This document shows, piece after piece, positions 62,861-64,000 of a stretch of DNA of 64,000 nt (the first letter of the stretch is position 1; every line of letters starts with the position of its first letter). The stretch lies in the NCBI RefSeq assembly GCF_003334355.1, contig NZ_QOWP01000002.1; one strand, written 5' to 3'. Made by a program: the position numbers and the translations under genes. Source of the stretch: Escherichia coli. Lineage in GTDB: Bacteria > Pseudomonadota > Gammaproteobacteria > Enterobacterales > Enterobacteriaceae. A model generated the notes under the pieces. The model searched no databases. It was given only the letters and a program-made list of their open reading frames with translations, and was not told where the DNA came from.

Positions 62861-63470
62861 TTACAGGCTATCGATTAACAATTTGCCTTTACGGAACATC
62901 ATCAGACGCAGGAACACCACCATCAGCGCAGTTATGACTGCCCCCAGCGCGATCCCCGCCATATAGACGCCCAGGTTAGTGACCAGCGGCCATGCCCAGA
63001 TAGCGGACTCCGGGAACCATTGCACTGCGCCCAGCCAGACAGCGGCGGTTGAGCCGACAATAGCGCCGACCATATACGACGGAATGGCGGTGATGGGGCT
63101 TTCCAGCGCAAACGGAATCGCACCCTCACTGATCCCCATAAACGCCAGGAACATGGCGGTCTTACCCTGCGGATAAAGTTGAGCGTTGAACAGGCGTTTG
63201 CCGGTTAAACGACGGTCGATAATGGTCGCCAGCCCCAGACCAATCGGCGGAATAACGATAGCGATAGAACGAGCGGTGACCGGTAATACGTGGTCAGTGG
63301 TAAAGCTGAAGGCAACAAAACCTGCGGCTTTGTTGATCGGGCCACCAAGGTCGATTGCTGTCGCCGCGGCGATCCCCATTGCGTACATCAGCGCGCCCTT
63401 CTCACCTGCGGCAGTCAGCACAGTACGGATACCGCCGTTGATCCAGCCACCAAAGGGGGTGATGACGTAG
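62861..63470 (-). pseudogene. fryC: fryC (PTS fructose-like IIC) 3' fragment, interrupted by IS3
   Basis: Frame …YYVITPFGGWINGGIRTVLTAAGEKGALMYAM… runs open into the IS3 terminus at 63471; no start codon in window. Confidence 0.8.
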
Positions 63471-63535
63471 TGATCTTACCCAGCAATAGTGGACACGCGG
63501 CTAAGTGAGTAAACTCTCAGTCAGAGGTGACTCAC

Positions 63536-63835
63536 ATGACAAAAACAGTATCAACCAGTAAAAAACCCCGTAAACAGCATTCGCCTGAATTTCGCAGTGA
63601 AGCCCTGAAGCTTGCTGAACGCATCGGTGTTACTGCCGCAGCCCGTGAACTCAGCCTGTATGAATCACAACTCTACAACTGGCGCAGTAAACAGCAAAAT
63701 CAGCAGACGTCTTCTGAACGTGAACTGGAGATGTCTACCGAGATTGCACGTCTCAAACGCCAGCTGGCAGAACGGGATGAAGAGCTGGCTATCCTCCAAA
63801 AGGCCGCGACATACTTCGCGAAGCGCCTGAAATGA
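63536..63835 (+). CDS. insE: IS3 transposase OrfA (InsE)
   Basis: [31 protein letters not shown]… HTH/leucine-zipper. Confidence 0.9.
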
Positions 63836-64000
63836 AGTATGTCTTTATTGAAAAACATCAGGCTGAGTTCAGCATCAAAGCAATGTGCCGCGTGCTCCGG
63901 GTGGCCCGCAGCGGCTGGTATACGTGGTGTCAGCGGCGGACAAGGATAAGCACGCGTCAGCAGTTCCGCCAACACTGCGACAGCGTTGTCCTCGCGGCTT
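63832..64000 (+). CDS. insF: IS3 transposase OrfB (InsF), 5' part, -1 frame relative to insE
   Basis: ATG overlapping insE stop (AATGA); [30 protein letters not shown]…. Confidence 0.85.

Follow-up and report, generated by a model that had tools for sequence, protein, structure and literature searches.

In Escherichia coli K-12 the fry genes form an intact operon, fryBC-ypdFE-fryA (b2387-b2383), and the transcription unit is given in the literature as 'fryBC ypdF ypdE fryA' (PMC2731931). Transcription proceeds in the order fryB, fryC, ypdF, ypdE, fryA, all on the minus strand as oriented here, and the genes are tightly packed, with successive gaps of 21, 14, -1, and 24 nt. Upstream, a sizeable gap is found only between glk and fryB (218 nt). 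K-12 also contains a copy of IS3, IS3A, which carries insE1 and insF1 (b0298/b0299) in the orfA/orfB layout and has pseudogenes, eaeH and ykgA, as neighbors. The classical polar insertions are those of IS1, IS2, and IS3 in the gal and lac operons. There, an IS in the promoter-proximal gene of a tightly packed operon is expected to abolish that gene and to reduce the distal ones.

The locus described here lies in a window of 64,000 nt of E. coli DNA (assembly GCF_003334355.1, contig NZ_QOWP01000002.1). It has the gene order, spacing, and strand of the K-12 operon but differs from it in that 1258 bp of IS3, plus a 3-bp duplication, break up fryC after codon 214. Downstream of the insertion the minus strand carries the intact aminopeptidase genes ypdF (61761-62846) and ypdE (60724-61761), followed by the final gene of the operon, fryA (ptsA; 58204-60699), which is also intact and encodes a fused HPr-EI-EIIA protein. 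The first of these, ypdF, starts 14 nt past the fryC stop. The original prediction had read the operon as fryA-ypdEF-fryC, disrupted at its first gene; the real order is fryB-fryC-ypdF-ypdE-fryA, with fryC second.

We regard this locus as an ordinary recent IS3 pseudogenization of a cryptic PTS gene that shows no departure from textbook IS3-family behavior. The fryC::IS3 locus is already known, as it is annotated in RefSeq by PGAP in strain PSS-12. In the account that we favor, with a probability of about 93%, IS3 (1258 bp) would have transposed into fryC at a 5'-CTA-3' target in codon Tyr-214, duplicating 3 bp and splitting the gene into a 5' fragment and a startless 3' fragment; polarity on the distal genes would be likely, and the allele would then have been inherited clonally.

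Interruption of fryC

The fryC 3' fragment occupies positions 62861-63470 on the minus strand. It consists of 202 codons, Tyr-214 to Leu-415, followed by the TAA stop at 62861-62863, and is severed from its start codon. The minus-strand frame is open up to 63475 and meets an in-frame TAA at 63476-63478, two codons into the left repeat of IS3. As anticipated in the original prediction, the frame runs into IS3 at 63471 without a start codon; the native fryC start is absent from the window, and the in-frame candidates, GTG at 63421 and ATG at 63388 and 63379, are internal only.

When the 202-residue fragment was compared with protein profiles, it matched those of the fructose-type EIIC in the C-terminal half only. 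The match to TIGR01427 spans profile positions 167-346 of 346 with a score of 82 bits (cut-off 157.55). A complete, uninterrupted EIIC frame is lacking in this fryC, which is broken at codon 214. The alternative that IS3 lies in intergenic DNA was rejected, since the insertion point is within codon Tyr-214 of the 415 in fryC.

The 5' fragment lies beyond the window. It codes for residues 1-214 of FryC plus a 10-residue tail derived from the IS, DPTHVIWTQA, after which there is a stop (224 residues in total); in PSS-12 this premature stop is situated at positions 7525-7527 of the locus sequence (L001). In silico excision of IS3 together with one TAG from the PSS-12 sequence restores a FryC that is identical to K-12 b2386 in 415 of 415 residues, so the comparison with K-12 fryC that had been proposed at the outset has a clear outcome. 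Synteny with fryB, ypdF, ypdE, and fryA holds as well, and the protein is the ortholog of b2386. Because excision restores a FryC identical to that of K-12, the transposition is recent. The fryC gene is now a pseudogene and, as judged from the sequence, the FryBC permease would be non-functional in this lineage, because neither half of fryC should be able to form the EIIC membrane domain.

The reconstructed full-length FryC itself scores 157.0 bits against TIGR01427 (cut-off 157.55) and 138 bits against the equivalog NF007787 (cut-off 426). By these profiles, FryC is divergent and stands at the border of the fructose EIIC family.

Boundaries and identity of the IS3 element

The left boundary of IS3 is formed by TGATCTTACCCAGCAATAGTGGACAC, which has its first base at 63471 and occurs once in the window, where 0 chance matches are expected. 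From this point the plus strand contains nucleotides 1-530 of the 1258-nucleotide element (63471-64000), and the window ends inside it. These 530 nt are identical to the corresponding part of the PSS-12 copy. The left terminal inverted repeat (IRL, 63471-63510, plus strand) starts with TG and agrees at 28 of 40 positions with the reverse-complemented right end of the PSS-12 copy. The tips of the PSS-12 element read TGATC...GATCA, with the right repeat ending in CA; the left repeat alone is inside the window. The imperfect inverted repeats of about 40 bp with 5'-TG and CA-3' termini that characterize IS3 are thus present.

The element is preceded by TAG on the plus strand, or CTA in the sense of fryC (63468-63470), which is the left copy of the 3-bp target-site duplication. 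The right copy lies beyond the window. A 3-bp duplication had been predicted at the other end of IS3, and TAG is indeed found at both ends of the element in PSS-12 (L001, 6298-6300 and 7559-7561), where the duplicated triplets are separated by 1258 bp, the length of IS3. The right end of IS3, the second TAG, and the 5' half of fryC were read in relatives that are 99.97-100% identical. The draft genome GCA_003293365.1 has the same right junction, in which ATGTACTA is followed by TGATCC. A simple insertion would produce a right junction consisting of GGTAGGATCA, TAG, and TACATCGCC in succession, and we infer from the relatives that the right end and the second duplicate are present in the window's own genome as well.

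The IS3 of PSS-12 is 100% identical to K-12 IS3A over nucleotides 4-1258 (1255 nt). The two copies share the orfA/orfB layout and are found at different genomic locations. K-12 IS3A (L017, 1730-2984) is annotated with a length of 1255 bp and differs in this respect from the copy described here, which has 3 additional nucleotides, TGA, at its left tip. At this position the left flank in K-12 reads GCCT before CTTACCC, where the present copy reads TGAT before CTTACCC. The element is a canonical IS3 (IS3 family, IS3 group) in which every defining feature is present. The proposal that IS3 truncates fryC is borne out by the identity with IS3A and by the break in the FryC frame.

Transposase genes of the inserted element

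The first gene of the element, orfA (63536-63835, plus strand), is of the insE type. It codes for 99 residues with an HTH_Tnp_1 domain (PF01527) and corresponds to the N-terminal part of NF033516, the IS3 family transposase. It overlaps with orfB, an insF-type gene encoding an rve/DDE integrase domain, of which the 5' part is contained in the window (63832-64000, plus strand) and the remainder continues past its end. The full OrfB of PSS-12 has 288 residues and contains Pfam rve domains; its score for NF033516 'IS3 family transposase' is 339 bits (cut-off 160).

A slippery site, CAA AAG (A-AAG), is predicted at 63797-63802 on the plus strand, where a programmed -1 frameshift between orfA and orfB would yield the fusion protein OrfAB. 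We take CAA AAG (A-AAG) to be the slippery motif of IS3, in keeping with the work of Sekine and Ohtsubo on this element. When the -1 shift is computed at CAA_AAG, an uninterrupted OrfAB of 387 residues results. PGAP annotates the transposase coding sequence of PSS-12 with 'programmed frameshift', in two joined pieces covering 1163 nt. At the level of sequence, the element has the overlapping orfA (HTH) and orfB (DDE/rve) with a predicted -1 frameshift fusion that is typical of IS3. Both transposase genes lie on the plus strand, antisense to fryC, and the left end of the element adjoins the distal genes of the operon.

Distribution of the fryC-IS3 junction

A 600-nt query across the fryC-IS3 junction was compared with 5426 complete RefSeq E. 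coli genomes. The intact junction was found in one of them, PSS-12 (NZ_AP027697.1), isolated from human feces in Ecuador; the empty fryC site is uninterrupted in 5415 of the 5426. A literature search for strain PSS-12 found nothing. In the PGAP annotation of PSS-12 the locus consists of a fryC 3' fragment, IS3, and a fryC 5' fragment (AABK13_RS21200, RS21205, and RS21210), followed by fryB and glk. Both halves of fryC are treated there as pseudogene fragments. The 3' fragment is labeled 'PTS fructose transporter subunit IIC, incomplete, missing N-terminus', the element 'IS3-like element IS3 family transposase', and the 5' fragment 'missing C-terminus'. PSS-12 has the insertion at the same site, in the same orientation, and with the same IS3 sequence, and over 32800-64000 the window is 99.97% identical to it, with 8 SNPs in 31.2 kb.

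Three further assemblies bear on the locus. A draft contig of GCA_003293365.1 (NRWB01000092.1) encodes the exact 224-residue product of the 5' fragment and ends about 100 nt into the right end of IS3. The Logan contig SRR3823860_206 starts 30 nt inside the left repeat of IS3 and, among the matches listed, agrees with the window along 9297 nt with 0 mismatches. The window's prophage gene recurs with 0 mismatches on a contig of GCA_012531255.1, which, assuming colinearity with the window, would break at 63469, the edge of IS3. An exact-match search for the 40-nt left junction across metagenome contigs came back empty. The insertion had been described as strain-specific. Its rarity holds, at 1 of 5426 complete genomes, but the restriction to a single strain does not, because the insertion occurs at least in PSS-12, GCA_003293365.1, SRR3823860, and the genome of the window.

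The window breaks off after 530 bp of a multi-copy repeat whose other end is unseen, and about 7 places in PSS-12 match, about 6 of them further IS3 copies, so that the fryC-IS3 join could in principle be the chimeric end of a contig. In the complete genome of PSS-12, however, all 1258 bp of the element lie inside fryC, flanked by a perfect 3-bp duplication. The left junction heads the independent Logan contig, the right junction ends the independent draft contig, and excision in silico gives a perfect FryC. With these observations, an artefact of assembly or of the window end is scarcely credible.

A second alternative accepts the junction and supposes that IS3 at 63471 is a point of recombination in the window's genome, that is, an inversion or deletion between IS3 copies, which would part it from fryB and the 5' half of fryC. 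IS3 is multi-copy, its right end lies beyond the window, and the window's genome does differ from PSS-12: at argW it carries a P22-like prophage (at least 32.8 kb) that is missing from PSS-12, and 8 SNPs separate the two over 31.2 kb. Against this, the left junction and its 9.3-kb flank are identical in relatives, a simple insertion is seen in the relatives whose right side could be read, and no data point to a rearrangement. Such a recombination seems very improbable to us, and a simple insertion remains our reading of the locus.

The FryA allele of the window is carried by roughly 22 contigs or isolates. In some of them, such as GCA_030001115.1 and GCA_023534225.1, fryC is intact, which indicates that the insertion arose inside a narrow clade. 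The recent event was followed by inheritance within a small clonal group. The junction, found in 1 of the 5426 complete genomes and a few drafts, provides a clean clonal marker for this small E. coli lineage. Sister isolates in which fryC is intact beside this FryA allele would offer an isogenic-like comparison for the question of the Fry PTS substrate.

A 175-residue open reading frame called on the fryC 3' fragment was present in 888 index blocks, and the contigs examined were mostly indel-ridden long-read assemblies. In such E. coli assemblies (L007-L015), fryC, glk, ypdE, ypdF, fryA, and pyrS are split into short open reading frames. This pattern fits uncorrected indel errors, which would inflate counts of 'truncated fryC'. 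Matches to the 175-residue frame were rejected as evidence on the IS3 insertion because many genes are split in those assemblies.

Predicted effect on the distal operon genes

Reading the operon in its true direction alters the set of genes expected to be affected. The original prediction was concerned with polarity on fryB, placed outside the window. As the second gene, fryC follows fryB, which is situated upstream of the insertion and out of reach of polarity. The insertion is upstream of ypdF, ypdE, and fryA, and therefore it is these genes (58204-62846), all of them within the window, that are exposed.

Transcripts from upstream of fryB would pass the premature stop and cross about 1.2 kb of untranslated antisense IS3 RNA. 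This could cause polarity of the Rho type and would probably lower the expression of ypdF, ypdE, and fryA, leaving fryB unaffected. The arrangement resembles the classical gal and lac insertions in having an IS in a promoter-proximal gene of a tightly packed operon; it differs in that polarity is here a prediction from geometry, and in that the operon is cryptic and has no known phenotype. On this basis, we predict substantial polarity on ypdF, ypdE, and fryA and hold it to be somewhat better than an even bet.

The insertion could instead be non-polar or even activating, if an outward or hybrid promoter or read-through kept ypdF-ypdE-fryA on and the permease alone were lost. The ends of IS3-family elements are enriched in proto-promoter sequences, and single mutations are able to create promoters from them (PMC12095673). 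A scan of the antisense strand of IS3 predicted no intrinsic terminator. Moreover, ypdF has its own Shine-Dalgarno-like sequence, GAAGGA, inside the 14-nt gap. What speaks against activation is that the wild-type 150-bp ends of IS3 gave no detectable promoter activity in a reporter assay, for which they had been chosen for that reason (PMC12095673). The present copy is wild-type, being 100% identical to K-12 IS3A, and a consensus scan of the minus strand near 63471 found no promoter-like site reading out of the left end; neither terminator-like nor promoter-like sites were found at the IS3 ends. An outward promoter at the left end of IS3 was rejected on these two grounds, the scan and the reporter assay. 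Overall, we judge a non-polar or activating insertion to be unlikely, and polarity on the distal genes is preferred.

The lineage is a natural fryC knockout that is possibly also polar on ypdF, ypdE, and fryA, with little import beyond strain typing. To our knowledge the Fry PTS has no known substrate, and for this reason no phenotype can be predicted. It is a distant speculation that loss of FryBC, with or without silencing of ypdF-ypdE-fryA, has been selected in a small human-gut lineage, or that the left end of IS3 has become a new promoter uncoupling ypdFE-fryA from fryB.

In the glk-fryB intergenic region of PSS-12 (L001, 8727-8756, minus strand), a promoter-like site overlaps a terminator-like hairpin, TATCGGGAGGTAACTCTCCCGATA with a T-rich tail. 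Possibly glk transcription terminates and the fry operon begins here.

The argW prophage and ypdC

Positions 1-32799 of the window are occupied by the P22-like prophage, which is inserted at the argW tRNA-Arg site beside dsdC with a junction at about 32800-32815. Its genes include those for the gp16 and gp20 ejection proteins, SieA, torI, and an Ea22-like gene. At the prophage junction the 3' end of the argW tRNA alone remains (CTGCAGGGGACACCA), and ARAGORN detected no complete tRNA in the window. PSS-12 has at this site an intact tRNA-Arg followed by yfdC. A query for the prophage junction was covered to at least 80% in only 3 of the 5426 complete genomes.

The ypdC gene (57344-58201, plus strand) is intact in the window and codes for 285 residues. 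PSS-12 ypdC has two transitions, C to T and G to A, at window positions 57412 and 57651, of which the second converts TGG to a TAG stop, and PGAP marks the gene as a pseudogene with 'internal stop'. Other relatives (L021, L022, and L024) share the ypdC alleles of the window. The remaining six of the 8 SNPs that separate the window from PSS-12 are at 35777, 36165, 38736, 41576, 43810, and 45256.
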